A stretch of DNA of 64,000 nucleotides from the IMG/VR virus record IMGVR_UViG_3300047510_002037, positions 1-64,000 of that record; one strand, written 5' to 3'. The translations under genes were made by a program, and so were the position numbers. How positions within the stretch are numbered: the stretch's first letter is position 1; every line of letters starts with the position of its first letter. The DNA comes from a virus. This document shows, one piece after another, positions 2,425 through 64,000 of this stretch. Below the pieces are notes generated by a model. It searched no databases and was not told the origin of the DNA. It saw only the letters and a program-made list of their open reading frames with translations.

Positions 2425-3465
2425 CTACACTAATTCGCAAGCTTCTTTATATACCTCCGAAATCATTTCTTGAATTTTTGCTTTATCAAGATTTATTTCA
2501 GACTCTAATATATATCTATTCAGTATGGATAGCGTGTCTTCCGATTCGAAGGCTTCAAATTCTTCATTTGCTTCGATCTGAAAGTTTTCTACTACCTTGA
2601 GTTCCGCAACATTTGAAGAATATAATTTATCAATAAACTTTTCAAACTTTTTAATATCCGTTTTCTTACGAACTATTACCCTAACAATCTTGTTCTCATA
2701 TTCACGAGAATCAAACGTTTGATAAGGAGTGTCTTCATAATAGATATTATAAAATAACCTATGAGGATTATTAATTGGTTCGTGATTTACAGAATCAGTA
2801 TCGAAGATATGAAACCCTCTAGTATCTCCAACATCTGTCCAGAACATTTCATATGGATTTCCTAGATAGAAGACCGTCCCGTTATCCGATCTAGTGTGAT
2901 AGTGTCCCGAGTAGACACGCTCGAACTTACCAAATAGTTTGCTTTCCAAACCATGCTCCATGAGGATTTGTCGATTAACTCTAAATCCCTGGAGTTCAAG
3001 GTGCCCCATCGCACACTTGCAAGTTGTATTTTTAATAAGTTTAAGAGTGCGTTCTTCATTTTCTTGATTAATCCAGGGTATAAAAAGTACGGGTAATTGA
3101 CCCAACATCACTTCAGTTGGATCTGAATAAACAGTTACGTTATCGTATTCGCGCAATAACAAATCAACTGCATTTACATCATTTGTATTTTTATAATATG
3201 CAGTATGATTACCAACAATTGTATGAACTTTTACTCCCATCTCTTGAAGACGGTCATAGTAATTATTCTTTGCCCACGATAAAGCAGAGAAATCAATTCC
3301 TTTACGACTATCAAAAGTATCTCCCATATCAACAACAGTAGTAATCCCTTGCTCTTCGAGTGTAGGGAAAAATACATCATTGTAAAACTTTAGGAAATAA
3401 TCGTGAAAGAGTTTTGAATTCTTTCTTGCTCCAAAGTGTTGGTCAGTAATAATTGCTACTTTCAT
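2425..3465 (-). CDS. gp47: Recombination endonuclease subunit, SbcD/Mre11-like nuclease
   Basis: Metallophosphoesterase motifs TDQHFG, GDTFD, GNH, SGHYH. Confidence 0.95.
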   Translation of the reverse strand: MKVAIITDQHFGARKNSKLFHDYFLKFYNDVFFPTLEEQGITTVVDMGDTFDSRKGIDFSALSWAKNNYYDRLQEMGVKVHTIVGNHTAYYKNTNDVNAVDLLLREYDNVTVYSDPTEVMLGQLPVLFIPWINQENEERTLKLIKNTTCKCAMGHLELQGFRVNRQILMEHGLESKLFGKFERVYSGHYHTRSDNGTVFYLGNPYEMFWTDVGDTRGFHIFDTDSVNHEPINNPHRLFYNIYYEDTPYQTFDSREYENKIVRVIVRKKTDIKKFEKFIDKLYSSNVAELKVVENFQIEANEEFEAFESEDTLSILNRYILESEINLDKAKIQEMISEVYKEACELV

Positions 3466-3960
3466 TCAATAACGAAGTTTTGAGTGTACAGCGTCTTTAA
3501 TGGAATTATAGTCGCTATAATTACTTCCGTCAAGTGAGTTGTCATCAAAAACTTGATCAAATCCTGTTCTTTCTAAGATTTTATTTTTGATCTCTAACTG
3601 CTTTTTCTCTTTCTGAATACGACGAAGGAAAGCATAGTGAATAATTTGAGTAAAGTAAGCAAAGGGATTTTGTGACTTCTCTGGATTGAAGTTATGAATA
3701 TATTGAACGCAGTTCTCAATTCCATCGGAAATCATGTCTTCCTTGAACATATAGTTCACAAAGTTTGGTTTGAAGGAAAGGTGATTAGCAATCTTCAGGA
3801 AACACTCTCCAATGTAGCGAGGAATAGGAGGTTTTGGTTTATCCTGGGCAAGTGCTAGATCGACACTCTCTCTATAGGAAATTAAAGCAGCTAGAAATTC
3901 CTTGTTGTTGACGTAATGTTCAGACCTCTTTCTTTTGGTCATATTTGTAGTGATAATCAT
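3466..3960 (-). CDS. gp55: Late-transcription sigma factor
   Basis: HYVNNKEF, YIGECFLKIA, NPFAYFTQIIHYAFLRRIQKEKKQ motifs; synteny. Confidence 0.95.
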   Translation of the reverse strand: MIITTNMTKRKRSEHYVNNKEFLAALISYRESVDLALAQDKPKPPIPRYIGECFLKIANHLSFKPNFVNYMFKEDMISDGIENCVQYIHNFNPEKSQNPFAYFTQIIHYAFLRRIQKEKKQLEIKNKILERTGFDQVFDDNSLDGSNYSDYNSIKDAVHSKLRY

Positions 3961-23256: not shown

Positions 23257-26200
23257 TTAATCTCCTAGTGCTAGAATGAATGGGGTTACATTATTAAATA
23301 AACTCTTCAGATATGCTCTACCAGAAACTGTTCCACTCGCTTGGTTAATAACAACGCCATCACCAATTCGGAAGTTTCCTGCTTGATCAGTGCTAGTATA
23401 TGTAGCCTCTCCACCATCTTCCTTAACAACCTCATTTTCTTGTATAGGAACTCCACCAACAGCAGGTCTTGCTGTAAAGATATTTGTTCCAGCACCAATG
23501 TATTCAAACGAGATTGTGGTTGCGATTTGTAGACTTTGGCGAGCCAAATAGACTGTATCTCCAATTGATACATTATTATTTAAACCTTGAACTGAAGTTA
23601 TAGTTGTGATTCCCGCATTTGGGAAAGTTGCAGCAGAAATCTTATAGTATAGTGGGTCAATCTTACTAACAACTGCAGAACCTGCGGATCCACCACCAGA
23701 CAATGGGGCAGAAACTGTTATAGAAGGTTCTGTTTCATATTGAGTTCCAGAGTTAATTAAAGTAATGTCTGTGATTCTTCCATCCAAAACTGTTGGAATT
23801 GCTTGTGCAGTAATTCCGTTAGGTCCGGTTGGAGCATCAATAGTTATATCGACATCGTTAGCGTTTTGGTATCCAGAACCACCATTGGTTACAGTAATTG
23901 AATTTAGTGAATAGTATAGTTTTCCAATATAGAAAACCTCACCATCATATGGTCTGTATGTACCAACACCACTTACAGTCAATTCAATATCACCAATAGA
24001 ACCAGCTATAGCAACGTTAGCACTCTTTCTATAAATTGATTTAGAATCAACTCCACTAATACCTCTAGATACTAGACCTTTATTTCCAAAAGAGGCATTA
24101 GAGTTTGTTAGGTCGCATTGTCCACCAGACTGAGTTACAATTGCTTCATTGCAGCAAATAGTAAAGATAGAAACTAACTGTGCATATGCTCCATTTGAAA
24201 TAGAAACTCCAATACCATTTTGATTATATTGAGTATATGAGTCAACACTCATCGATCCCTGTACACCAATATCATCTTCATCTCCTGGTTCTGCTGGGAA
24301 TCCATCAATTTTCATTCCAATACTATCTGGAATAAAGTTTGTGCAGTTTCTAATATATGGCCCTTTGAAAATTTGACCAGTTCCTGGTGAGAACGATGGA
24401 TCGTTCTCAATTTCACTACCAGCTCCGTTATTTCCTGGATAAGTTGTTTTTATTCCAGTTGGATTTTGTGCGGATCTAAAGACTGTTAAACCAGATCCAA
24501 CGATTGTAGTTACAATTCCAATGCATGACCTCATAGCAGAAACTACATTATAACATCCAGCTGGACTTTGGTTAGTTCCAACTAGTGGATCAATTTGAAT
24601 ACCAAGATCTTTTACTTGAGTATTGAATGTTTGGAATGGTCTAAACTTAAGGATTGATCCCCCACCATAGTATGTGTGTTGTATTTCAGTTCCACCGAGA
24701 GTAACTTCGAAGGTATTAACCCCAACAATTCTTTCTACTGGGAATATTTGTCCATGTGTATTATCTGGGAAAATAGTGGTTGTGATACCAGAATTTACTG
24801 TACCGCCACCAACATAAGTGTGATCTAATGTTGATATACCGACATTTACAGTAAATCTTCCTGATGTGAATAGTTGTGGATATGAATTTAGATTACCGTT
24901 AGTAACAGAAGTTGTTAATATTGAAATTAGATTATCAATGTTGGATTTAACATTAGCACAAGAATTTGGACTTGTATTAAATCCAGTTAGTGGATCTGCT
25001 GTAATTGTTAGATCCTTAAAGTTTAATTGATTTGTAATTGCTAGTTTTGAATAATCTCTAATAGAATTGAATGCAGTAACTGATGGTGCTTCCTCTCCGA
25101 TTAATCCATTTGTTAATGGATCTCCATTAGCATCAAAATACGCTCTTGTCGCTTCTCTAATATACTTGTTGGTTCCAAATCTAAGATCTTTTATAAGAGC
25201 ATCGACAACATATGCAATATCCCTTCTGCACTTACTTTCACCACTTAAGAATAAACCATAATTTATTTTAATAGCATTCAGGGTTAGTAAGTTCCCAGAA
25301 CCAATTGGTTCGGTGATAATAGATGTTAATGTATCTAGAGTTGACTGAACATCTGAACAAGCAATTGAACTTGTATTTGCTACGGAAATATTACCATCAC
25401 CATATACTGATGATCCGATGGAAACTCCAGTATCTTTTATTGTAAGTTGATTGGTTATTGCAGACTTCATCAAATCTCTTGCTGCTTGGAATGCTTCAAT
25501 CGAAGCTGATTCCTCTCCAACCAGTCCATTTGATATTGGAGCACCAGATCCATCAAAATACTGTTTAATAAATTCTATTGAATATCTATTCCCTCCAGTG
25601 AATATATCTGTAGAAACAGCATCTACAAAATATCCAAGATCTCTCTTGCATTTTGTTTCAGTTAAAATAACACCAGAGTTTGCTGGATTAGCAATCATAG
25701 TATCCCAAGCAGAAGTTACTATTTCTGCTTTATTTTGTTGGATGAGTCTATAAGCATCCTTATATCTTGAATATTGTGTTGTCTGATTATCATCTGGAAA
25801 ATAGAAATCAGAATGGGCAATCGCAATAGATGCTAAAGATTTATCAATAATTTCCAACCTATTACCAGATATTAAATTAGCAGCATCTGCGTATCTGTGA
25901 TCAATTGCTGTTGAAAGTATTGTAAAATCATATCCAAGATTACCACTTGGATATAATGCAGTGGATGGACCTCCTCCACTATTGCATTCAAATACTAAAT
26001 TCTCTAGTCTAACTTTTTCGCCTGGCTCTGCATAAAAACCTATAGCAGTTGTGGATGCAATACCAACAACTCTAATTGTTGATATACCAGTAATTCTGTC
26101 GTATGTTGCAGTAGAAACTCCAAACGTTGGAGTATATAATCTAGTTACCGTTCCCCCTCCAACATAACTATGGGAAATAGTTGATGGTCCAACATTAACA

Positions 26201-28308
26201 TTAAAACTCGTTCCAGAAAGAACATCTGATACGGTAAAATCATATCCAAGATTACCGCTTGGATATAATGCGGTGGATGGACCTCCACCAGAATCGCATT
26301 CATAGACTAGATTTTGAAGTCTTACTCTATTTCCGACTTTAAAGTTATTATTTGCTGAGGTTTCTATAGTGGTAATACCACTTATATTATCATATGTTGC
26401 GCTGATAACATTTATTGGTGTTCCTGGGGAACCTTCTGGACACGTAAATGCAAATCCATCTAATTTTACAGAATCATATTTTTGAAGACCATGATTTGGG
26501 ACTGTAACTGTAGATAATCCTGTTTTTTGATCATATATTATGTTTGTTGCTGGTATAGTTAATCCAATGGAAACTCCACCCCATGTAGAATTATTAATAA
26601 CGTTTCTAGCAATATTGAAAGAATAATCCAGTGTTTTTATTGTCTGTTCTCTTTCCAGTGGATTTTTTAGAGTATTGAGTGCAAATTCTCCAGTACTCTC
26701 ATCAAAATATGTTTTACCAGCCGCAACACATTTAGAATTACCACCTCTAGTAATATCATAACAAACTGCTTTCCAAATATTTCTAATATCCCTAGAGCAC
26801 TTAAATGTATCTAAGTTTATTCCAGTAACTGTTACTATTCCCGCAGTAGATCCAGTTCCTACAGCTGTTGTAACAATACCAGCAAGATATGAAATACTAT
26901 TAGCAACACCTACACACCAACCAGTTCCTCTAACGAACTTATTCCCAGACTGATCATATTCAACTCTTGTTTGAATACGAGTCGGGTCAAATGCTTGAGT
27001 ATAAGTTGATTGATAATTTGTATATTTCTCAACAGTTCCGCCAGTACTGTATGTGTGCGGAATAGATGATATTCCAACGTAGACTTTGAATGTATTTACG
27101 CCAACATATTCTTCTACTTTAAAGAAGTATCCATACTTACCATCTGGGAAAGTATTAGTTGTAATACCAGAACCACCAGGACACGTAAACTTAACTCCAT
27201 TTAGTTTGATGATATCACCAGTTGTTACTCCATGTCCAACTGCAGTAACTGTTGATAATCCAGTTAGATTATCATAGATAAATCCAGTAATATTTGTTGT
27301 TGATCCAGATGCAACACTACCATATGGCTTATTATTGATTACGTATGTTGCAATACCTACGGCATAATTAATTGTATCAACTGTCGCCGTAGAAATTCCA
27401 TATCCGTTTATATCTACTCCCGTAATATGGAGTAAAGCCCCACCAGATGAAAAATATGAAAGTGCTGCTCCAACAGACTTTTCGTTACCTGTCGCTTTTA
27501 AATCATATGCAATGGATTTGAAAATATCTTTAATATCATCCCTACAATCTTGGTCTGTTGTTGGAACTTCAAATACGGGATTTTTATAATCAGTACTAGT
27601 CAGGAATCCAACAGCCTCACCAGCAATAAAATCTAAGTTTGCTTCTAACAATACAGCAGCATCTTGTGCTACGTGAGTTCCAGCATATCCGCTATATCCA
27701 CTTGTTAAGAATCCAACTGCTTCTCTAGCAATAAAATCTGAATTATATCTAATTAATCTAGCAGCATCAAAATATCTGTCTGGAGATACTCCTTCTAAAG
27801 GTCTAAAAGCAATAACAGCAGCACCTTCTGTAGCTGGAGGTCCAACAAAACTTAAGTCGGTAACGTGAACACCATCATTTACATGAAATAAATCTTTATT
27901 TGAATTTTGTGGTGTTACTAAACAGTTTCTTAATTCTAATCCCTCTACCGATACATTCTTTTTAAGAAGAATTGGGTTATTTTCAATATATTGTCCAGCA
28001 TAAACTTTAATAGTATCAAATGAATTTGCTATTGCTGCAGCAGCTTTAATAGATGCTTTTGCATCTCGTTCATTTAAACCACTATTAGCATCATTTCCAT
28101 TTTTAGTTACAAATATTGTTTTACCTAATGATCCACCAGCACCAACTGCAATAACTCTGGTAGCAATTCCAACTCCACCAGTGTCTTGCTTCAAGAAGAC
28201 TTGACCATCAAATGCATTAACAGCTAATTCACCAATTAGAAGTTGAGCATTTGTTGGAACTTTGCCTTCTACTGAAGATCTTTTTAACCTAATTATTGGA
28301 TCAGACAT
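23257..28308 (-). CDS. Large virion/fibre protein with pectin-lyase-like beta-helix frame and four phycobiliprotein-like helical domains
   Basis: N-terminal IRLKRS...GELAVNAFDG attachment module; FVTKNGNDANSG...ASIKAAA; repeated (K)CxRDI motifs. Confidence 0.8.
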   Translation of the reverse strand: MSDPIIRLKRSSVEGKVPTNAQLLIGELAVNAFDGQVFLKQDTGGVGIATRVIAVGAGGSLGKTIFVTKNGNDANSGLNERDAKASIKAAAAIANSFDTIKVYAGQYIENNPILLKKNVSVEGLELRNCLVTPQNSNKDLFHVNDGVHVTDLSFVGPPATEGAAVIAFRPLEGVSPDRYFDAARLIRYNSDFIAREAVGFLTSGYSGYAGTHVAQDAAVLLEANLDFIAGEAVGFLTSTDYKNPVFEVPTTDQDCRDDIKDIFKSIAYDLKATGNEKSVGAALSYFSSGGALLHITGVDINGYGISTATVDTINYAVGIATYVINNKPYGSVASGSTTNITGFIYDNLTGLSTVTAVGHGVTTGDIIKLNGVKFTCPGGSGITTNTFPDGKYGYFFKVEEYVGVNTFKVYVGISSIPHTYSTGGTVEKYTNYQSTYTQAFDPTRIQTRVEYDQSGNKFVRGTGWCVGVANSISYLAGIVTTAVGTGSTAGIVTVTGINLDTFKCSRDIRNIWKAVCYDITRGGNSKCVAAGKTYFDESTGEFALNTLKNPLEREQTIKTLDYSFNIARNVINNSTWGGVSIGLTIPATNIIYDQKTGLSTVTVPNHGLQKYDSVKLDGFAFTCPEGSPGTPINVISATYDNISGITTIETSANNNFKVGNRVRLQNLVYECDSGGGPSTALYPSGNLGYDFTVSDVLSGTSFNVNVGPSTISHSYVGGGTVTRLYTPTFGVSTATYDRITGISTIRVVGIASTTAIGFYAEPGEKVRLENLVFECNSGGGPSTALYPSGNLGYDFTILSTAIDHRYADAANLISGNRLEIIDKSLASIAIAHSDFYFPDDNQTTQYSRYKDAYRLIQQNKAEIVTSAWDTMIANPANSGVILTETKCKRDLGYFVDAVSTDIFTGGNRYSIEFIKQYFDGSGAPISNGLVGEESASIEAFQAARDLMKSAITNQLTIKDTGVSIGSSVYGDGNISVANTSSIACSDVQSTLDTLTSIITEPIGSGNLLTLNAIKINYGLFLSGESKCRRDIAYVVDALIKDLRFGTNKYIREATRAYFDANGDPLTNGLIGEEAPSVTAFNSIRDYSKLAITNQLNFKDLTITADPLTGFNTSPNSCANVKSNIDNLISILTTSVTNGNLNSYPQLFTSGRFTVNVGISTLDHTYVGGGTVNSGITTTIFPDNTHGQIFPVERIVGVNTFEVTLGGTEIQHTYYGGGSILKFRPFQTFNTQVKDLGIQIDPLVGTNQSPAGCYNVVSAMRSCIGIVTTIVGSGLTVFRSAQNPTGIKTTYPGNNGAGSEIENDPSFSPGTGQIFKGPYIRNCTNFIPDSIGMKIDGFPAEPGDEDDIGVQGSMSVDSYTQYNQNGIGVSISNGAYAQLVSIFTICCNEAIVTQSGGQCDLTNSNASFGNKGLVSRGISGVDSKSIYRKSANVAIAGSIGDIELTVSGVGTYRPYDGEVFYIGKLYYSLNSITVTNGGSGYQNANDVDITIDAPTGPNGITAQAIPTVLDGRITDITLINSGTQYETEPSITVSAPLSGGGSAGSAVVSKIDPLYYKISAATFPNAGITTITSVQGLNNNVSIGDTVYLARQSLQIATTISFEYIGAGTNIFTARPAVGGVPIQENEVVKEDGGEATYTSTDQAGNFRIGDGVVINQASGTVSGRAYLKSLFNNVTPFILALGD
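25922..26289. repeat. Near-identical ~55-bp direct repeat (about 25922-25977 and 26233-26289) encoding GGGPSTALYPSGNLGYDFT
   Basis: gtaaaatcatatccaagattacc(a/g)cttggatataatgc(a/g)gtggatggacctcc occurs twice. Confidence 0.85.
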
Positions 28309-53523: not shown

Positions 53524-55080
53524 TTAGAATTGCAAAATAACCTTAATGTCTTCTTTTTGGCTTTTTGATCTTGTGATCGAAGGTCTGTTATCTACATAAA
53601 TTATTTCACCTGAGTATTTCTTAACTTCTGGTTGAGAAATTCCCTCTTCAAAAAACTGGCCAAGGTTGTATGTCTTATTATTTATCGTGGTAGTTATCCC
53701 AGTAAAATCAACATCTATTGATAGATTACTTGATCCACCCTTAACAATTATCTCTCCCCCATCATCAGGAACGTCAGTAAATCTATTTAAGTTATATCCA
53801 TAAGTAGGGATTTTTTGACTACCATCACTATTAAATCCAACTAAGGATTTATCCTGCCAGTATTTTAAAACTCCAGTTGCATCATCATAAGAAACAACCC
53901 TACCAACAGCAGTACTTCCGACACCAATAGTCTGTGTTACAAAAGAATCTGGAGAAAAAGTAGTAAAGCTATATGCAATTCCTGTTAATTTTAATGCATA
54001 TAGAGCACTGACCTTATCAAGATTTAATAAAGTTTCAGAAGAACCAGATACTAATGGATTTCTAACGATTCCAACACGAGAAATTTGATTTCCTACTATA
54101 AAATCTGGATTTTCAGTATCATTTTCAATCCTAGTATACATTAGAACATTGGTTGCTCCCAATTCTCTATAGATGTCGTAACCATGTCCTCCAGTTGGTG
54201 GTATAATAACATCAAACTCTGGTGTAGTAATTCCTGGTGGAAATGTAGTTGCAGTTAAATCAACTCTTCCATGTGTATATCCATATCCACCATCAGAGAT
54301 AAAAATATCTTCAACTTTTGCATCATTGTTTACTATAATTGTTGCTTTAGCACCAAATCCATCACCTTTTACTGGAATATTTGTATAAGTAATACCTCCT
54401 GTTCCAAGTCCAACACCTCTATTTTTAATTGTAATTATTTTTAATTGTCCACTAGATTGTGCGTTCTGTCTTATTGGATCATTAACAATATCAGTTTCCC
54501 AATTTTTTGGAACTGGTATGAAATTAACAGAATCGAATTTTACAATATCTGATGGTTTAATAGTATAAAGATATTTCCAAATATACCCATCTCCACTATC
54601 CCCAGCAGACTTTGGTTCCAAATCAGTAAATAATGGTTCATCTAGAGATGGTTTTCCTTCAGGTGTTTCTGGAGTTGTACCATTTTGCAAGCAAATATAA
54701 ACTCTATAATCACTATTCATCACATAAAAATTGGATGAATACAAATTTGTTGCGTTTGATGGTTTTGCTAAGTTATTCCTACTGATATCATGCCTATACA
54801 TGTCGTAAGTAGTACCAGAATTCCAAGTTATTTTCCTTATAACCTGTCTGATATCATCAGCATTTATCTTTTTCAAGGCAATCATAGTATCCCATATATC
54901 AGACTCCTGTTCAAAAGAGTCTCTAGGGGATGGTGGATTTGAGTCCCAACTGGAGGAATAATCAGTTGGATTAGCTAATCCCAAAAAAGCATAAAATTTA
55001 TTATTTTCTGAGTCCTCGGCAAGGGACACGAAATTTTTTGCATTTAATATTCTAATTTGATCAGTTATTATTGCAGCCAT
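53524..55080 (-). CDS. gp8: Baseplate wedge subunit
   Basis: YRVYICLQNG, GDGYIWKYLYTI, YSGEIIYVDNR...EDIKVILQF; late promoter at 55101-55107. Confidence 0.9.
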   Translation of the reverse strand: MAAIITDQIRILNAKNFVSLAEDSENNKFYAFLGLANPTDYSSSWDSNPPSPRDSFEQESDIWDTMIALKKINADDIRQVIRKITWNSGTTYDMYRHDISRNNLAKPSNATNLYSSNFYVMNSDYRVYICLQNGTTPETPEGKPSLDEPLFTDLEPKSAGDSGDGYIWKYLYTIKPSDIVKFDSVNFIPVPKNWETDIVNDPIRQNAQSSGQLKIITIKNRGVGLGTGGITYTNIPVKGDGFGAKATIIVNNDAKVEDIFISDGGYGYTHGRVDLTATTFPPGITTPEFDVIIPPTGGHGYDIYRELGATNVLMYTRIENDTENPDFIVGNQISRVGIVRNPLVSGSSETLLNLDKVSALYALKLTGIAYSFTTFSPDSFVTQTIGVGSTAVGRVVSYDDATGVLKYWQDKSLVGFNSDGSQKIPTYGYNLNRFTDVPDDGGEIIVKGGSSNLSIDVDFTGITTTINNKTYNLGQFFEEGISQPEVKKYSGEIIYVDNRPSITRSKSQKEDIKVILQF

Positions 55081-55103: not shown

Positions 55104-58100
55104 TTATGATAGGTAATTTATAGATTTTAGAGCATTAGTTCTTCTTACTATTGGGGAAGTTGAAATTCCCAATAATCCATTGTCTTTATATATTGAATAT
55201 TCTTCTGGATTTGGTCTAATTAAATTAGATACCTTACCCCAAGTATATTCTCCAAAAAATTCTCTTGATAAGAACTCATTAATTACTAATCCATTTAGAT
55301 CTTCTATAGGAGCAATAACTTTTATCCTATCAACAACTATTAAAGTTCCTTCTTCGGTAACAGTTACGGAAGAACCACTTCCTATAGCAAATGATGCATA
55401 TCTAGCAGTATCGGAAATTATCTCAGAAACATTTACTTGATATGGTTCAAGATCAATACCAGCAACTTGATATACATTATCAATGAATTGATTTCCTGTA
55501 ACCAATGCATTCCCACTAATATCTAAGGAAGTAACTCCAAAACCAATATTAGTTGAGTTGATTACAAAATAATCACCAATTTGAATAGTACTTTGATCAT
55601 ATATCTCACCAACAACACTAGCATCTCTAAGTGGAGAATTTTCATCAATGAATAATTCAAATACCAGTGCAGTTGATCCCACCCCTATAGATGTTGTACC
55701 AATTCCACTAATAAATCCAAAATCTCCAGAATATTCTACTTGATATGCAACTTCACTCTTAGATAGTGGTGGTGATATTAAAACTAATGGTGGATTATTA
55801 TCATCATATCCACTACCACCATCATTAATTGATATAAAATCGACCTTACCATCAACAATTACAGCTGTTGCCGAAGCGGTATTTATACCACTCTTTGGAG
55901 AATGTATTGATACTGTTGGTATGGTTGTATATCCAAATCCTTTATCTTGTATATTAATACTAGTAACTATTCCAGAAGTAACTGATGCTAAAGCATATGC
56001 AGATTTAGTATCATCTTGTGTTACTATATCTACAACATTAGTATATGTTTCTGGCGCATTTTCTTTTTTATCGTCAAAGAAAGTTTTTAAACTTTCTACA
56101 TAAACAAAAGTGCTACCAATACTTATATCAGAAATAATATTTGTAAATGGATTTATTTGAGCTTCATATAAGTCTCTTGATTTGGGAATAATTTGACCAT
56201 CTACGATAAGATCATTCTTTTGTCTACACCAGTTAACTGGTCTCTCTAAGAATGGATTCTGAATTATACCCTCTCCACCATATGGGAATGTCTCCACAGA
56301 ATCTGTAGCTGTAATATCTTTAACAGACCGTTCGGATTGATTTTCTTCAATGAAATCACTATGCAATCTTAATCTATCCCCAGGTTTTACTGTTTCTAGA
56401 ATATCTACATCCCTAACATCAATCGACCCCGTTCCTCTATAGAACAGTATCTTCGCAGTGTTTCCTGGTTTTGGTGGTTCTGGGAAACGTATAATACTTC
56501 CTCCCTTAAATATGTAACCAATTCCAGGAACTTGTAATATATCATTGATGAATACCAATAGAGTTGACTGAACATCAATCAGAGAACCAGTTTTTGATTT
56601 AATAGACTTTTGTATTCCATTGATTTTTATTGGGAATCTTGTTCTAAATCCATTAAATAGAGGACTTATATCATCCAAAACTGCAATATCACCTATTGTC
56701 CATCCAGTAAATTCGTCAGTATCTGTATCTGCTACAGTTACTTCAAAATTTTCAAAATTCTGTGTTGTTGGTAATGATAAAGTTGGATTTGAGTATGGAG
56801 ACTGTATCGTTGGTGCATATGCTGTTCCAAGTCCAATAATTGTAGTTATTATACCAACATAATTTCCTATGGTATACCAAACATCCGAGCAACAATTTTC
56901 GTCATATAATGAAGGACTGCATGATTCATCAAAATCAATGGATAAATCTTTAATCTGAGAAATAGATGATATACCAGATTGATATGATACTGGAACCGTT
57001 ACGTTGTTTATGATATATTGTGATATATTGGTAATATAATTATAACCTGCTATTGTTTCAGTCTTTTCACCATCAATATATGATGTACCACCAGCTCCGA
57101 TGTAGTATGCAAATCCAGCTTGAACGCTATAATAGTTACCACCAAAGGCTAAGTCATTTGAAATTGCATCTACAACATAACCAATATCTCTCTTACAAAT
57201 ACTTTCATCATAATCAGTGCTGGTCAAAATTCCTGGATAGGTATTTGTGATGAATCCTACCACTTCATTCTTAATAAATTCTTTGTTTACTGATAGTAGA
57301 TTTGCACCATCAAGTAATCTACCTCTATACTCTCTTGGTATACCAGTAGTTCCACCAACAGCAACTGTTAATATATTATTGATTTCATATCCAAAACCTG
57401 GATCTATTATTTCAAAATCAATAACACTAGAACCTTGTCCTACAACAACATTAACTCTAGCATTTTGACCCGTTGTTTTTCCAATTGAAGTTGTGGAATA
57501 TTCTAAATCAATATTTGAGTATGATAATGGGTCATCAAAGACGACTTCTGGTGGATTTGATGATGTGTATCCAGATCCTGGATTTGTAATTGCTACACTT
57601 ACAATTCTTCCATAACTTATTGACGCAATACCAATCTTATTATAACCATCAGAATAGTTAGTTGAAGTTCTTACTCCAACATTTACAGTTTGTATTCCAG
57701 AACGATAACCAGATCCAACATTGGTGATATAAATTGATTGAATAGTTCCCGAAGCAGATACAACAGCAGTACCAGCAGCTGCTACAAGAGTTTGATATCC
57801 AAATCCACCTACAGATCCAACTGCAGTAATTTTTCCGGATACTGGTAGTCCTGTTACTGAGATGTCCAAACCATCAGAATAAGAATTACCATCAAAATAA
57901 ATTGTAGTTGAATCATTTTCTTCACCAAGATAATAGTTTCCAGTAACACTAACCACACCGGTGCGTATAGGTGATTGGAATATATCTTTAACAGTAATCA
58001 GTGCATTACTTTGTTCTATTCCAGTTATATTTTCACCATCTACAGTCAATGTAAACGCTGTTGTTATTCCATTAAATTGATCTTGTATTCCATCAAAAAC

Positions 58101-61100
58101 ATAATTTCTTGAATATGGTTCTTCTGTCCCATCAACTATTCCAGATCTCATAAATGTTCTTCCGCTAAAAGTGGAATTTGTTGTAATTCCTGTCCAATCT
58201 CTAGAGTCTGGTCTATTTTCAGGAGATCCTAATGGATACTTACCATAAGGAGCCGATGCAAAGTTAATTACATTATCTACAATATTATAGTTTCCGACAA
58301 CTTTTATTATTAAATCACCGGCAGAATGATTTTGTAATGATGTTCCAAGCCATGGTCTATTAACGTATATTTGAGTGGAAGTTGTTCCATATCCAACTAT
58401 AGCAACTCTCATTAACTCATCATTTATTTTTATGAAATCGCCAGATTTGAAAAATTCTACGTTATTTGATACGTTAATAATATCATCTGTAGTAAGAATA
58501 TTGTACGCAAGGGTTGTTGTTGTTGCAGTAGATACAATTGGAGATTGTATCATATTGTCAATAGAGATTAATGCCTTTGCATTTTGCTTTTCGGCAGTAA
58601 TATAATGCTCAGAACCAAAACCAACAGAAGTTATTGTTAAAACTTCCGGTACTAACTTTAATGCATTTTGAGCAGAGGATGCAAATTTAACATTAAGATC
58701 AGTTTCTTTTACAATATAAAGATCTTCTGGTAATTTATCAGTCAATCCAATACCAGAAATAGTAGTAGTTGCTATTCCTATGGGCTCATTAAAGATCTCA
58801 TATGAATATTTTACTTTTTCTCCAGTAACAAAGAAATGTTGTGGAAGTTGTACTAAATTATTTGCAACGTCAATTATGTCTGAAGATTCTCCATTAAATT
58901 TCTTTTGGAATATTGGATTCCCTTTGTGGAATAACTCAAAAGATTTTCTAATTGCACTCTCAGTTCCTTCATATTCGCCATATCCAGTAGATACTCGTGC
59001 ATTATTCAAATCTATCTCATTATTCAAGTTAAATGTATCAACTATTCCTATAGTGTTTACATATACCCTAACCTCACAGTCTATTTCAGAATCTGCAGTG
59101 AAATAAATTTCTGTTGTAGATCCATTTAGAAAAGAAGTAATAATACCAATTTCACCATTAGTGGTTAATACTCCAAATTCAGAGTTATATGCTGAATTAT
59201 CATCAGATGCAACTACACATTCTGAAATTTGATATCTTTCATTAGTTAAGTCTTCAATACTTACAATTAAATATGCTCCATTATAATCATAGAATCCAGC
59301 ATCAAACTCCGCAATCTTAGTTGGTGAAGTGCTAGAAGTTGTAGATATACCAACATATTCGGAATTTAACTGAGAGGTGTTTAATGTTATTGATCCCTCT
59401 TCAATAAATCCTGATGCAGAGCTTGCTATAGACACTTGTAACGTGTTTACATCAGCATCTAACAATATATTTGGTATCAAATCGACTACTAAGTTTCCTG
59501 AACTTATATAAGCATTATATGTCCCAATACCCGAAACAGATTCTTCTGAGAATGATTCGGTTGTAATTTGACCATAATCTATAATCTCAACATTAGTTCC
59601 ATCATGAATAACAGTAATTTCGTCGAATTCAAATATATTTGACGAATCTTCAATCTGAACTAGAATTTTAGTTGCTCTGTAATCTAGAGGTATTGATGCT
59701 ATTGTTGTGGTTATACCTGCATTTAATGGAGTAAAAGTACTATTAACCTTAACAATATTACCAATCGAGGTGTTTCCTACTCCAGAAATGTAATCTTTAA
59801 CGTCATAACTTACAAAACTAAGATCATAATTATTAACTCTAAACTTGACTGGATAGAAAAGTAATCTAGCTTCATCGCCAAAAATATCAAAATCGAAAGA
59901 TCCTAATATTGGACCAGTTTCAACTCTACCATATTGGTTTATGTATGTTTGACCTCCATCATGAATAAAAGTAACAAGGTATACTTGTCTTTCTGAAGTA
60001 AATCTTTTATCCCTAGCGAAAATTAAGAACTTTCTTGATCTTATCTGTTCTAGTTTAAATGTTGTTACAACACTGTATGGATTTGGTCTTGGTCTATCAT
60101 TAAAATATTCACTAACATCATCAATTACTAATACTCTATTTCCAATAGATTCCTCATAATCCTGAAGATCTCTACTATTAAATATCATTCCATTAGATAT
60201 TAATTTTGCTCCGATTGTTTCTGTTTCATCAATAGCAATATCGAAATCATATACACAATCTAAATCTACTACTTCTGATATGAAAGCAATTGATAAGAAA
60301 TCGCCACTGTCTTGAGATGTTGATATTCCTGAGAAAGATAAATCAGAGGTTTCAATTACTAAATCACTAAACTTTTTAAATCCAGATAGATGGTTTAATG
60401 AATTAACAGTAGTGTCCCAATTTTGGAGTGGAATTCTTGATTTAATTGAATATGAGAAATTCTGATAATAATCTCCATCTTGAATTTTTTGGAAAGAATT
60501 ATTTAAAAATCCAGTTTCATCTTTCCATCCAGAGACTACAACAGAGGTTGCATCAACATTATATACCAGTTCATTGGTTGCTATCTCAGTAATTTCTGCA
60601 ACTGATCCACTCTTTGATCCTACAACACGTTCTCCTAGTAAATATGAATCTATAGTAGTAACTTTCAATAATTCATTAATTTTATCCCATCTAGAAACTC
60701 TTCCTACAACCTTACTCGTCAAACCAGTTATCTCTTCACCTTCAATAAAATCATTCTGCTTTATTGTTGCTGTAAAAATTGGAAAATGCTTTTCTAAAAC
60801 AACTATTCCACTGGAAGTTACCAAATCATATTGGCCTAAAATTTCATCACTAGAAACATAGTCTTGCATACTATAAGTTATAGTTGCATTTGAACCTCCA
60901 ATATTTGGATCAATACTCAGGATCTTGAATAAATTATAGTTAAATTCTGATGAATTAAATCCTCTACCCAAACTTCCTAAAGTACTTGTTTTACATCCTT
61001 CTATCAGGATGTTATCATTTACTTGGAATGGAAAATCATTTAAAGAGCTAAAACTAGTCCTAAAAGTAACCGTTACAATTTTAGTACTAAAGTTAAAAAC

Positions 61101-64000
61101 TATATTTTTGATAGAAAAACCATTAGAGTTATTAATAGGAATGAATTTTGGAGTATTATTTGATAAGCTATTTGTATTTTTGATGATAGTTACGCCAGAT
61201 TCTGTATTAGATAATATTAAATCAGTGAAAACTTCATTTGTTGCAGAATCTTTTACTATCAAATCCGGAGGAACAACATATCCTTTTCCATTTACAGATA
61301 ATTTTATTTGATCAAATGAATACTTTTGATTCAGAACTAATATATCTGGCAGTTTCGCTGTGGGTCTTAATGTTAGGTCTGATGGATAGTCAAATCCAAT
61401 ATCTTGTATTTTAAATCTATTATCCTTTCCTATACTATCACTTTTTGGTTTTATTTTCGCATCTTTTCCTGTTGAAGAGAAAACTTTAGCGAGTCCAACC
61501 AATCTTTGATAATTGTCTCCACCAGATTCCGTTACTATTTCTTGAATTTTTCCAGTAGTTGTTCTTGAACTGGTCACATAAGAAATAGATGCTGTTGTTT
61601 TATCATAGAAACTCTTTTCTGGAGTTATACCCATCTCCATAGAAAAGAATGTTGCTCCTGCAGAAACAACATTTGACCTTTGCGAATATCCACTAAGAGA
61701 AAAAACTAAACTATTTTTGAAATCAACATTTAAATTATCTGAGAATATTTGTCTCTTTGTGAGTGGTATATTTGTATTTTTTAATGGTACTAGATTGTAG
61801 TATATGGTATATGGTGTTTTATCTGTTACAACTAACTCAGCATATGCGTTCTCGCTGATCCCAATAGATCCATTATATGTTATCTGAAAATTTGTTTCTC
61901 CATCAGAAAGGTATTCATGTTTAAATTGATCGTCTTTATATAATTTAAATTCAAATGCAGAAAATCTTGATACTCCATCAATATACGACAAAGATGGGTC
62001 GTTTAAAAGAAATCTAACTTTCGAATTTCTTACTATTTCTATTGATGGATTTATTTTAAATAATTTACCTGAAGAAGTAGCAGAAGTTATGTTTATTACG
62101 TTAATATCATCTTTATCTACAATTATTGAATTGTAATATGAATTTGCAAGTTGAATTGTGTCTTTAGTAATGTATATAACATAATATATCTCATCATTAA
62201 CTAATCCACCAAGAGCATTGTTATCATCAGAAACATATATTACCTTATCTCCAGCAGCAAATCCATGGTTTTGTATACTAATAGTATTTTTATCTAAATT
62301 TATATCCGAGACATTGAATGATTTTGGATTTACCACCAATCTTCTATGTTTATCATTATATCTAATATCAATTTCTGTTGTTTCTACTGAAGTTAAACTT
62401 AATGATACAGAATCTCCAATAGTTAATCCATTATCCTCATCAGTATATGCTGTAAGTATATTATGATAAAGCTCGCTATTAATTATATTTTTATAAGTAG
62501 TTTTAAAGCTATGCTTATATCCAGTACCAACACCAACGTAAAATAATGTATCGGCACCAATATCAGTTGTTAGTCCAACAAATGAAGAATCAGTTGATAT
62601 TCCCAATTTAACAGTAGATAATCCAATAATGTTATTATCAATTTTCGCAACGAAAAGTGCTCCATCAATTTCATTTGATGCATATTGTAAAGATGTAGTT
62701 ATTCCATTAATATAAACGTTTATATCAGATCCATCATATGAGTTGTATATAACTTTATCACCAGTCTCTAAACCATGTTCTGGAATATAAATTGTTTTGG
62801 AAGATATAGTGATCTGTGTTAGTCCAATGCCAGGATTGACTAATGTTGCAGTATATCCAATTCCGGATATTGTACCCAAACCAACTGAATCCTGAGGGAC
62901 AAAATATATCTCTCTATTTAAACTTACATTATTAAGAGTGCTTCTTATTTGTGAATTTTTAACATAAAATTTTCTAGGAATTTCAATGAGTTTGCTATTA
63001 GCAGAATGAGCTGTACCAACAGTTTGATCATATTCTCTTTCAACCAATATTCTCAAATCTCTAGACTGGCGATTATCCAATCTTAATACTCTAATCTTTT
63101 CGGAATTGATTTGAAATATATCATTCTCACATAGATACGGAAATCTCAATTTTCCCGATACATTGAAATATGTTACTATTCCAGTAACTGAAGACGGTCC
63201 AACATTTGAATTTAATGTTATTTCTCTTGCATCTATTGTTAAAGATTCAAATGTATTAACAATTGCTTCGGATTGAGTCGAAAATCCAACCAATCTTACC
63301 TTATCTCTATTTTGTAACCCATGTGGAGTTGTGCAGAATCCAATTAGTCCATTAACTTCTGGTGATTGAGATACTTCAACATTACTAAAGTATTTTAGGG
63401 TATTTTGTACGCGATTAACATTCTTACCAACTAATTCAGAAACTACAGCTGAAGCTCCAACTCCACCAGTAAACGTATTATCGAAGAGTACCTGATCTCC
63501 CACTCTATAGTCGGTTCCGGGAGATAATATATCTACACCATCAATTCTTCCTTTGCTAGAAGCTTCAATTATAGAATAATTTTTTTCTAATTTAGTTGGA
63601 TCTAATAAGTATTCATAACCACTTTCTTGCTTATTTAAATTATAAGGAGTTATATTTCTACGCCACTTTGTAGCATTAATTCCATATTCATCCTGATTTG
63701 CTGTCCTTTCTGAATTAAAAGATATGTACTTGCTGAAATATGAATCTCCAATAATATATGGAAAAGCTGGTAGCTTACTCAATGCAAATGGACCTTCTTT
63801 TTGTAAGGTTGCTTCTAATGTTAAAAAGTATGCATAGGTTCCATTTGGAAATTCTGGAGTTATGCAAAATCTTCCATTTTTTTCATCTAAATCTCCTCTC
63901 CCAGTATATGAAAAATCCTCGATAAAAAATCCAAGAGGATAATTTGGTCTACTTCCAGTATCAATTTTTTCATAACCAGAAACCATTTGTCTAATTCTTC
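55104..64000 (-). CDS. gp7: Baseplate wedge initiator, giant cyanophage type (partial; frame open to window end)
   Basis: DLDEKNGRFCITPEFPNGTYAYF, QDGDYYQNFSYSIKS, NHLSGFKKFSD; directly upstream of gp8. Confidence 0.8.
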   Translation of the reverse strand, partial: RIRQMVSGYEKIDTGSRPNYPLGFFIEDFSYTGRGDLDEKNGRFCITPEFPNGTYAYFLTLEATLQKEGPFALSKLPAFPYIIGDSYFSKYISFNSERTANQDEYGINATKWRRNITPYNLNKQESGYEYLLDPTKLEKNYSIIEASSKGRIDGVDILSPGTDYRVGDQVLFDNTFTGGVGASAVVSELVGKNVNRVQNTLKYFSNVEVSQSPEVNGLIGFCTTPHGLQNRDKVRLVGFSTQSEAIVNTFESLTIDAREITLNSNVGPSSVTGIVTYFNVSGKLRFPYLCENDIFQINSEKIRVLRLDNRQSRDLRILVEREYDQTVGTAHSANSKLIEIPRKFYVKNSQIRSTLNNVSLNREIYFVPQDSVGLGTISGIGYTATLVNPGIGLTQITISSKTIYIPEHGLETGDKVIYNSYDGSDINVYINGITTSLQYASNEIDGALFVAKIDNNIIGLSTVKLGISTDSSFVGLTTDIGADTLFYVGVGTGYKHSFKTTYKNIINSELYHNILTAYTDEDNGLTIGDSVSLSLTSVETTEIDIRYNDKHRRLVVNPKSFNVSDINLDKNTISIQNHGFAAGDKVIYVSDDNNALGGLVNDEIYYVIYITKDTIQLANSYYNSIIVDKDDINVINITSATSSGKLFKINPSIEIVRNSKVRFLLNDPSLSYIDGVSRFSAFEFKLYKDDQFKHEYLSDGETNFQITYNGSIGISENAYAELVVTDKTPYTIYYNLVPLKNTNIPLTKRQIFSDNLNVDFKNSLVFSLSGYSQRSNVVSAGATFFSMEMGITPEKSFYDKTTASISYVTSSRTTTGKIQEIVTESGGDNYQRLVGLAKVFSSTGKDAKIKPKSDSIGKDNRFKIQDIGFDYPSDLTLRPTAKLPDILVLNQKYSFDQIKLSVNGKGYVVPPDLIVKDSATNEVFTDLILSNTESGVTIIKNTNSLSNNTPKFIPINNSNGFSIKNIVFNFSTKIVTVTFRTSFSSLNDFPFQVNDNILIEGCKTSTLGSLGRGFNSSEFNYNLFKILSIDPNIGGSNATITYSMQDYVSSDEILGQYDLVTSSGIVVLEKHFPIFTATIKQNDFIEGEEITGLTSKVVGRVSRWDKINELLKVTTIDSYLLGERVVGSKSGSVAEITEIATNELVYNVDATSVVVSGWKDETGFLNNSFQKIQDGDYYQNFSYSIKSRIPLQNWDTTVNSLNHLSGFKKFSDLVIETSDLSFSGISTSQDSGDFLSIAFISEVVDLDCVYDFDIAIDETETIGAKLISNGMIFNSRDLQDYEESIGNRVLVIDDVSEYFNDRPRPNPYSVVTTFKLEQIRSRKFLIFARDKRFTSERQVYLVTFIHDGGQTYINQYGRVETGPILGSFDFDIFGDEARLLFYPVKFRVNNYDLSFVSYDVKDYISGVGNTSIGNIVKVNSTFTPLNAGITTTIASIPLDYRATKILVQIEDSSNIFEFDEITVIHDGTNVEIIDYGQITTESFSEESVSGIGTYNAYISSGNLVVDLIPNILLDADVNTLQVSIASSASGFIEEGSITLNTSQLNSEYVGISTTSSTSPTKIAEFDAGFYDYNGAYLIVSIEDLTNERYQISECVVASDDNSAYNSEFGVLTTNGEIGIITSFLNGSTTEIYFTADSEIDCEVRVYVNTIGIVDTFNLNNEIDLNNARVSTGYGEYEGTESAIRKSFELFHKGNPIFQKKFNGESSDIIDVANNLVQLPQHFFVTGEKVKYSYEIFNEPIGIATTTISGIGLTDKLPEDLYIVKETDLNVKFASSAQNALKLVPEVLTITSVGFGSEHYITAEKQNAKALISIDNMIQSPIVSTATTTTLAYNILTTDDIINVSNNVEFFKSGDFIKINDELMRVAIVGYGTTSTQIYVNRPWLGTSLQNHSAGDLIIKVVGNYNIVDNVINFASAPYGKYPLGSPENRPDSRDWTGITTNSTFSGRTFMRSGIVDGTEEPYSRNYVFDGIQDQFNGITTAFTLTVDGENITGIEQSNALITVKDIFQSPIRTGVVSVTGNYYLGEENDSTTIYFDGNSYSDGLDISVTGLPVSGKITAVGSVGGFGYQTLVAAAGTAVVSASGTIQSIYITNVGSGYRSGIQTVNVGVRTSTNYSDGYNKIGIASISYGRIVSVAITNPGSGYTSSNPPEVVFDDPLSYSNIDLEYSTTSIGKTTGQNARVNVVVGQGSSVIDFEIIDPGFGYEINNILTVAVGGTTGIPREYRGRLLDGANLLSVNKEFIKNEVVGFITNTYPGILTSTDYDESICKRDIGYVVDAISNDLAFGGNYYSVQAGFAYYIGAGGTSYIDGEKTETIAGYNYITNISQYIINNVTVPVSYQSGISSISQIKDLSIDFDESCSPSLYDENCCSDVWYTIGNYVGIITTIIGLGTAYAPTIQSPYSNPTLSLPTTQNFENFEVTVADTDTDEFTGWTIGDIAVLDDISPLFNGFRTRFPIKINGIQKSIKSKTGSLIDVQSTLLVFINDILQVPGIGYIFKGGSIIRFPEPPKPGNTAKILFYRGTGSIDVRDVDILETVKPGDRLRLHSDFIEENQSERSVKDITATDSVETFPYGGEGIIQNPFLERPVNWCRQKNDLIVDGQIIPKSRDLYEAQINPFTNIISDISIGSTFVYVESLKTFFDDKKENAPETYTNVVDIVTQDDTKSAYALASVTSGIVTSINIQDKGFGYTTIPTVSIHSPKSGINTASATAVIVDGKVDFISINDGGSGYDDNNPPLVLISPPLSKSEVAYQVEYSGDFGFISGIGTTSIGVGSTALVFELFIDENSPLRDASVVGEIYDQSTIQIGDYFVINSTNIGFGVTSLDISGNALVTGNQFIDNVYQVAGIDLEPYQVNVSEIISDTARYASFAIGSGSSVTVTEEGTLIVVDRIKVIAPIEDLNGLVINEFLSREFFGEYTWGKVSNLIRPNPEEYSIYKDNGLLGISTSPIVRRTNALKSINYLS

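Follow-up and report, generated by a model that had tools for sequence, protein, structure and literature searches.

A helical block in a giant baseplate protein

The window analysed here is a single 64,000-nucleotide strand, comprising positions 1 to 64,000 of the virus record IMGVR_UViG_3300047510_002037 in IMG/VR, and the element of interest is a helical block, hereafter the module, carried by a giant gp7-like baseplate wedge protein. The open reading frame (ORF) encoding this protein lies on the minus strand (55104..63986); 2960 amino acids of it fall within the window and its N-terminus is missing. Around the module the protein reads ...GGTTGIP / REYRGRLLDGANLL...ICKRDIGYVVDAISNDLAFGGN...CCSDVWYTIGNYVGII... 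/ ...PTTQNFENFEVTV, and the two flanks picked out in an earlier, sequence-only reading of the DNA, GGTTGIP and FENFEVTV, are both there. The block was found where that reading had placed it, at residues 2223-2380 (56847-57320), with the Cys of its CKRD motif at residue 2264 (codon 57195-57197). The domain proper, a globin domain of the phycobiliprotein (PBP) family, was delimited by its hidden Markov model (HMM) envelope, an AlphaFold2 model, VIA-align and hhalign, and extends over residues 2223-2395 (56802..57320, minus strand). It contains helices A, B, E, F', G and H, without helix X and most of helix Y. The C-K-R-D motif (residues 2264-2267; 57186..57197, minus strand) is the equivalent of Cys84-x-Arg86-Asp87 of PBPs, as judged by hmmsearch against the PDB and by hhalign, and a second cysteine, residue 2366 (56889..56891, minus strand), occupies the N-cap position of the last helix. 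The all-helical nature claimed for the block is reproduced in the AlphaFold2 model, a template-free prediction rather than a solved structure, which has seven helices (predicted local distance difference test score, pLDDT, 83; predicted TM-score, pTM, 0.84).

Five copies of the module had been counted in the window, and they proved to be real. A tblastn search of the block against the window returned the four others (E values from 2e-12 to 3e-6), all of them in ORF 23257..28308 (minus strand), whose 1683-residue product is a tail-fibre-like protein matching the PHROGs 'tail fiber protein' and 'short tail fiber protein'. Taking tblastn and HMM domains together, these copies lie at approximately 27220-27666, 26575-26826, 25270-25767 and 24871-25278 on the minus strand, their motif cysteines being Cys255, 504, 887 and 1027. 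The gp7 copy shares just 31-36% identity with them, and the C and D of C-x-x-D are invariant across the alignment of all five. In copies 1 and 2 of the 1683-residue protein the closing helices appear to be displaced by nested insertions. Matches to the last helix of the module only are present at 24481-24623 and 26836-27020 (residues 1229-1276 and 430-491 of the same protein), far downstream of copies 1 and 2, and fit with nested domain insertions that split these two copies.

Membership of the phycobiliprotein family

Relatives of the module were collected from IMG/VR (505 confirmed stretches) and a 17-sequence alignment, A2, was built from them. When the A2 profile was searched against all 177,635 distinct PDB sequences, 26 matches were obtained, every one of them to C-phycocyanin alpha (best E 0.011), in keeping with the earlier statement that this copy lies closest to phycocyanin alpha. 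The invariant Cys of the module falls in these matches on Cys84, the bilin-attachment residue of phycocyanin alpha. The same register emerges from hhalign of A2 against ten canonical PBPs taken from one Synechococcus genome (probability 89%, E 2.3e-6, 96 columns), in which C2264/R2266/D2267 are aligned with C84/R86/D87 and the Gly-Gly turn is placed on G102; a more permissive run gave a probability of 90% over 111 columns, with E values of 1.4-2.3e-6 across runs. The CxRDIGY string, reported at the outset as exact, is indeed so with respect to phycocyanin alpha of a Synechococcus genome (KCARDIGYY), but the accompanying alignment of YP with FP was not reproduced in the profile alignments.

A profile search of 1.84 billion representative proteins returned 1247 proteins, mostly giant, with up to 35 matched stretches in each. 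Four relatives score 42.2 (P0004), 32.3 (P0006), 25.8 (P0014) and 44.8 bits (P0079) against the Pfam family PF00502, 'Phycobilisome protein', for which the curated gathering cut-off is 22.2 bits. In the two relatives that were checked the PF00502-matched residues coincide with copies of the module, and two further relatives already bear a precomputed PF00502 label. Across a whole Synechococcus metagenome-assembled genome (MAG), the A2 profile finds a single match on the 2.6-Mb chromosome, to the Cys84 region of cpcA, and its strong matches are all on a 194-kb phage contig. The single module searched with phmmer against the PDB brought up a SusD-like protein (E 0.012) and CasPhi (E 2.3), which were judged to be chance matches, and a feature search of the ESM Atlas, in which the protein has no model, gave scores of no more than 0.79 to unrelated families, that is, noise.

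The predicted fold was compared with known structures by two methods. Using Foldseek against the PDB, the top 50 matches to the module model are all PBPs, with TM-scores of 0.52-0.65. VIA-align, which does not depend on Foldseek, places phycoerythrin first (5aqd_M, residues 26-184; Z 15.6; root mean square deviation 2.3 Å over 150 residues), and its top eight matches are again all PBPs (Z 12.2-15.6), including allophycocyanin and the bilin domain of ApcE; heme sensor globins rank below them, with Z values of 11.7 at most. Independent models of cyanophage tail proteins in BFVD match the module with TM-scores of 0.7-0.78, and the named significant structural matches in that database are all Synechococcus phage tail or structural proteins. 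The models thus predict a globin-like PBP fold made up of helices A, B, E, F', F, G and H. Since the PDB profile search, the alignment with host PBPs, Pfam by way of the relatives and the predicted fold agree on both family and register, the module belongs to a genuine PBP lineage: it is a diverged domain of the family, and its similarity to PBPs is far beyond chance.

Conservation of the module

Conservation was assessed through a census in which 166 representative proteins yielded 1783 module copies (a median of 9 and a maximum of 34 per protein). The copies are otherwise approximately 30-40% identical, and five positions, given here in A2 numbering, stand out as the most conserved: Asp53 (99.3%), Cys50 (97.7%) and Arg52 (95.1%), which make up the C-x-R-D motif (approximately 1734 copies), together with Tyr80 and Asp64 (99.1% each). 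In the gp7 copy of the window, the two near-invariant residues additional to the motif are Asp2278 and Tyr2294. The module retains the chromophore triad, Cys84/Arg86/Asp87, almost without exception. Poor conservation of the Cys, which the sequence-only reading had named as evidence that would count against it, is the opposite of what is seen. The same reading had argued for a selected function; selection is borne out by the residue conservation, whereas the nature of the function is a matter of inference. The second cysteine is invariant in A2, yet in complete copies of the module the position is occupied by Cys in only 62-67%. When PBP beta chains alone are used, hhalign sets C2366 on the GDC cysteine of CpcB and CpeB with low confidence (probability 28%), and Cys2366 may, as a lead only, be the equivalent of the beta-153/155 bilin site.

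Presence and absence at the gp7 junction

It had been suggested that gp7 orthologues from related cyanophages be aligned to see whether the block is a presence/absence insertion, and this is the pattern obtained. The junction was mapped by MAFFT alignment and blastp. In B23, S-CAM9 and DSL-LC03, gp7 aligns with the window's protein on both sides of the block, passing from TGIP straight to the F..F.V segment with nothing between. In B23, residues 6-418 correspond by blastp to window residues 1794-2219, and residues 395-838 to 2386-2813; the corresponding pairs are 5-347 with 1843-2222 and 350-639 with 2411-2696 for S-CAM9, and 391-893 with 1682-2219 and 901-1184 with 2414-2696 for DSL-LC03. The segment that is missing at this junction from all three comprises residues 2220-2410, approximately (56757..57329, minus strand). 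For B23 and S-CAM9 this absence refers to the junction examined, not to the whole gp7 proteins, and DSL-LC03 gp7 has a module of 58% identity some 900 residues before the junction, following the position that corresponds to window residue 1295. Where DSL-LC03 carries its module, the window's gp7 has some 390 residues of other sequence (residues 1296-1681; 58941-60101), a region that may be a second variable insertion site.

The gp7 site of the window is common to two metagenomic relatives at 70% identity, making three sequences in all with that context. The next closest modules (60%) are found in another protein, one of beta-helix fibre type like the window's 1683-residue product. In two IMG/VR loci (L004 and L007, approximately 2716-3843) the 60% module is inserted immediately ahead of the beta-helix in a protein of fibre or spike type, which suggests, on sequence similarity, that the domain has recently passed from one kind of virion protein to another. 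P-HM2 has two modules within its gp7, but alignment of that protein with the window's yields only high-scoring segment pairs of 25-30% identity, with repeated flanks, and the two are too diverged for their module sites to be compared. Because the orthologues lack the block, the DSL-LC03 module occupies a different site and the closest copies reside in a fibre-type protein, sequence comparison indicates a true presence/absence insertion and a domain that moves between sites, proteins and phages. The earlier proposal of a mobile module placed on two virion components is upheld by the same observations. Viewed as a family, the modules are discrete mobile domains that are present in gp7 and repeated in tail-fibre-like and giant virion proteins, with as many as 34 copies in one protein.

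Occurrence in cyanophages

A tblastn search of 50,697 phage records with the module matched 331 records, and a search with a relative 356, all of them cyanophages (the names of the records contain Synechococcus phage, Prochlorococcus phage, 'Cyanophage' or 'Marine'). The gp7 segment around the module (window residues 2000-2620) matches 439 phage records. The siphovirus S-SKS1 is among the carriers (profile E 3e-54). The module profile has no match in T4, in the pelagiphage HTVC008M, in the Microcystis phage Ma-LMM01 or in S-TIM5; HTVC008M is of the same virus family and has a heterotrophic host. The module is therefore far from being equally common in phages of non-photosynthetic hosts, a distribution that would have spoken against the sequence-only reading, since there are no such carriers among the 50,697 records. 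The narrower expectation that hits would be confined to phages of phycobilisome-bearing hosts did not survive: the carriers include P-HM1, P-HM2 and MED4-213, isolated on Prochlorococcus MED4, a strain which has no phycobilisomes, yet makes bilins. Because these MED4 phages carry the module, its range is that of phages of picocyanobacteria, the named carriers being phages of Synechococcus or Prochlorococcus.

Three metagenomic records bear other labels. A 193,981-bp contig filed with a Synechococcus MAG (JBJBBP010000001.1) contains three giant ORFs (3346-4904 residues) with at least 15 module matches among them; it probably represents an entire cyanophage genome that was binned together with the host. 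A non-cyanobacterial host was considered for P0079, which comes under a 'Nanopelagicaceae' MAG label, and rejected, the protein being 65% identical to the short tail fibre of S-RSM4 and hence a misbinned phage fragment. P0122 is a fragment of a module-bearing protein under a Minisyncoccia MAG label. The short contigs of P0079 and P0122 look like misbinned cyanophage DNA.

The gp7 gene and its neighbour

The PHROG 2885 family, 'baseplate wedge subunit', matches residues 3-2109 of the product of ORF 55104..63986 with an E value of 0, and its orthologues in B23, S-CAM9 and DSL-LC03 are annotated as 'baseplate wedge initiator (T4-like gp7)'. Directly downstream is the gene for the gp8 baseplate wedge subunit (53524..55080, minus strand; PHROG 438, E 3e-163), and the gp7-gp8 order is also present in P-HM2. 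By both homology and position upstream of gp8 the ORF is a T4-like gp7 gene. It is the last minus-strand gene of the window, its 5' end running off the edge. Since the frame has not closed where the window ends and the match to PHROG 2885 begins only at profile position 1260, more than 1000 residues of gp7 are perhaps encoded upstream of the window. At the visible N-terminal end, residues 15-60 (63807-63944) match the Pfam family YHYH (PF14240, E 1e-11).

A possible pigment on the virion

The Cys, Arg and Asp of the triad hold the bilin in PBPs. Because the same residues are under the strongest constraint in the module, we infer that a bilin could be held at Cys2264, and consider the chances of bilin binding by the module on the assembled virion to be evenly balanced. 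In the mechanism envisaged, a bilin produced late in infection by host or phage enzymes would be joined through a thioether to Cys2264, with a second bilin possibly on Cys2366. Attachment would be the work of a host lyase of S or T type, or else of a phage lyase (cpeT/cpcV), and the baseplate and fibres, once assembled, would then bear pigment. Photochemistry of the bilin would change the conformation of the domain and make it a light-responsive element, placed on the nucleating protein of the baseplate wedge and lying behind the light-dependent adsorption of some cyanophages.

Such adsorption has been described. In darkness P-HM1 and P-HM2 fail to adsorb and P-SSM2 and P-SSP7 adsorb (PMC6628666), while the adsorption of S-PM2 is light-dependent and independent of photosynthesis, according to Jia et al. 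2010 as cited in PMC6628666. The cause is left open in the latter paper as residing in either light-sensitive host receptors or phage tail fibres (PMC6628666). The module profile matches five times in P-HM2, five times in P-HM1 and nine times in S-PM2, with no match in P-SSM2 or P-SSP7, and module presence agrees with light-dependent adsorption in each of the five phages. We regard this agreement as a lead and not as evidence of cause. In S-PM2, cpeT (S-PM2p215) is situated 1.4 kb upstream of the module-bearing, 3779-residue gene S-PM2p218. A 2-oxoglutarate-Fe(II) oxygenase gene lies between the two, and gp12 comes directly after S-PM2p218 (AJ630128.1, 160000-178000); within the coding region of p218 the S-PM2 record also lists 16 tRNA features, apparently through a problem of annotation coordinates. 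In the window's own record, an 84.7-kb fragment with an estimated completeness of 40%, neither a canonical PF00502 gene nor cpeT nor a bilin reductase was found, an absence that is uninformative in so incomplete a record.

Several observations weigh against a pigmented, light-sensing module. The adsorption match covers five phages: the carriers represent about two independent lineages, P-HM1 and P-HM2 belonging to the same species, and of the two phages that lack the module one, P-SSP7, is an unrelated podovirus. Nor do bilin genes track the module, for P-SSM2 has a bilin reductase and no module, and DSL-LC03 has modules and neither cpeT nor bilin reductase. A domain present in up to 34 copies per protein has more the look of a structural bead than of a sensor. 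No paper on coloured or fluorescent cyanophage particles was found in the full-text literature. Canonical PBPs harvest light and do not act as photoswitches. A role for a pigment-bearing domain as the light-responsive element in cyanophage adsorption is doubtful, and the proposal in its full extent, a virion-borne bilin photoreceptor with pigment at Cys2264 that renders gp7 and the fibres light-responsive, causes light-dependent adsorption and accounts for phage cpeT and bilin-synthesis genes, we would call unlikely.

The explanation that competes most seriously with pigment binding is that a fragment of a host PBP was captured and exapted as an apo-domain, a pigment-free structural bead or a domain for binding the host surface, in which C-x-R-D would bind something else or stabilise the fold. 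Multiplication of the domain to as many as 34 copies and its shuffling among structural proteins are what such a bead would lead one to expect, as are the loss of the elements by which PBPs oligomerise (helix X, most of helix Y, R93 and Y97), the presence of the module in phages without a lyase or bilin reductase of their own, such as DSL-LC03, and the lack of any report of virion pigment in the literature found. It is harder to reconcile with this view that the three bilin-contacting residues are conserved at 95-99% in a domain whose copies otherwise share only 30-40% identity, or that the carriers all infect bilin-producing hosts and HTVC008M, a phage of a heterotroph from the same family, is without the module. 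The apo-domain is, in our opinion, a credible alternative, if a less likely one than pigment binding.

Other explanations turn on the cysteines, the fold or the alignment itself. In the close 17-sequence alignment two cysteines never vary, further cysteines occur in the G-H loop of this copy and virions live in oxidising water, all of which would suit a site, whether a structural disulfide or one for metal or redox chemistry, that stabilises an extracellular virion protein. The first Cys is, however, conserved at 97.7% and the second, in complete copies, at 62-67%, so that the pair is not obligate and the first Cys is not merely half of a disulfide; the N-termini of helices E and H are expected, from the globin fold, at opposite ends of the domain; and the Arg and Asp beside the first Cys are conserved as strongly as the Cys itself. 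A disulfide was rejected as the principal explanation because the second Cys is so much less conserved, and we hold this whole group of cysteine-based explanations to be improbable. After the PBPs, the best matches by structure are globin-coupled sensor domains and photocobilins (Z no more than 11.7), which raises the question of a sensor globin that binds heme or another tetrapyrrole rather than bilin. Yet no His exceeds 20% at any column among the 1783 copies, leaving no candidate for the proximal His that heme sensor globins have on helix F, which makes a heme globin unlikely, and sequence profiles match PBPs only, PBPs also outranking globins in structure; a sensor globin is very improbable. 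Lastly, a short motif might resemble that of PBPs by chance or convergence in an unrelated helical bundle. Some of the searches are weak, with a best PDB match at E 0.011 and a Foldseek E of 8e-3, and, as a point against PBP membership, single-sequence Pfam scans of the module and of the 1683-residue protein gave nothing even at E 10, the window's copy being below Pfam detection. Helical models, moreover, often reach Z values of about 13-14 by chance, according to the VIA-align tool note. Nevertheless, four independent lines of comparison all lead to one family and one register, the alignment covers 96-111 columns and thus reaches beyond the motif, and relatives exceed the PF00502 curated cut-off, such that coincidence is scarcely credible.

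In the full-text literature, including a 2023 paper on the origins of PBPs and with subscription journals outside coverage, no PBP-family domain in phage virions is described. What is new here is that the module is located in the gp7 baseplate protein, with its exact junction seen against orthologues that lack it and with another gp7 site used in DSL-LC03; the census of conservation and the agreement with published adsorption behaviour are likewise new. That most sequenced T4-like cyanophages should have the PBP family in their infection apparatus, as a domain that has been shuffled and multiplied and whose chromophore triad is under strong selection, is unexpected. Two questions are thereby opened to test, namely why light, but not host photosynthesis, is required for some cyanophages to adsorb (PMC6628666), and what purpose is served by the widespread phage lyase cpeT and by phage bilin-synthesis genes. 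Should pigment be bound, these would be the first known virus particles with a photopigment in their host-recognition machinery, with a bearing on the daily rhythm of viral infection in the ocean; should it not be, the module would still show clearly that a protein of host photosynthesis has been reused to build a virion.

Comparison with known systems

To our knowledge, PBPs have been described only from cyanobacteria, red algae and cryptophytes, as soluble subunits that harvest light. The module has in common with canonical PBPs a globin-type fold (helices A-H), Cys84, Arg86 and Asp87 in register, a Gly-Gly turn after helix E and a length of about 165 residues. Its best match by sequence is phycocyanin alpha, whereas by structure the best are phycoerythrin beta, allophycocyanin and the bilin domain of ApcE. 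It differs in having a long G-H loop and a near-invariant Asp and Tyr of its own, in being phage-encoded and in the putative status of its bilin. In addition, it is an inserted or tandem domain in virion proteins of 1000-6000 residues, in contrast to the free 17-20-kDa subunit that is a PBP.

Further differences concern assembly. In PBPs, D13, R93 and Y97 together with the X-Y hairpin build the alpha-beta monomer, R93 and Y97 forming part of the interface. In the module, helix X and most of helix Y are lacking, with structural and profile alignments starting only at PBP residues 26-29, and R93 and Y97, invariant in the ten host PBPs, are replaced by Asp and Asn. Neither kind of alignment thus finds the combination of X-Y hairpin and D13/R93/Y97 in the module. 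Because helix X, most of helix Y and R93/Y97 are missing, the module is a stand-alone PBP core and not a disc-building subunit, and disc assembly without the X-Y hairpin is unlikely.

Of the other systems compared, T4 gp7 shares its family with the window's carrier protein (PHROG 2885 and gp7-gp8 synteny), but T4 is without the module. Globin-coupled sensors and the N-terminal domains of stressosome RsbR, the next-best structural matches in VIA-align (Z 11.7 at most), likewise use a globin fold, in their case as a sensory input; they bind heme or no cofactor, do not have C-x-R-D and display no sequence-profile similarity to the module. A parallel in architecture is ApcE, the core-membrane linker, in which a PBP domain is similarly contained within a much larger multidomain protein (VIA-align Z 12.2-13.3). 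The PBP domain of ApcE binds its bilin, reportedly without a separate lyase. In contrast to the module, ApcE is cellular, retains the N-terminal hairpin, joins the allophycocyanin core and has its PBP domain in one copy per protein.

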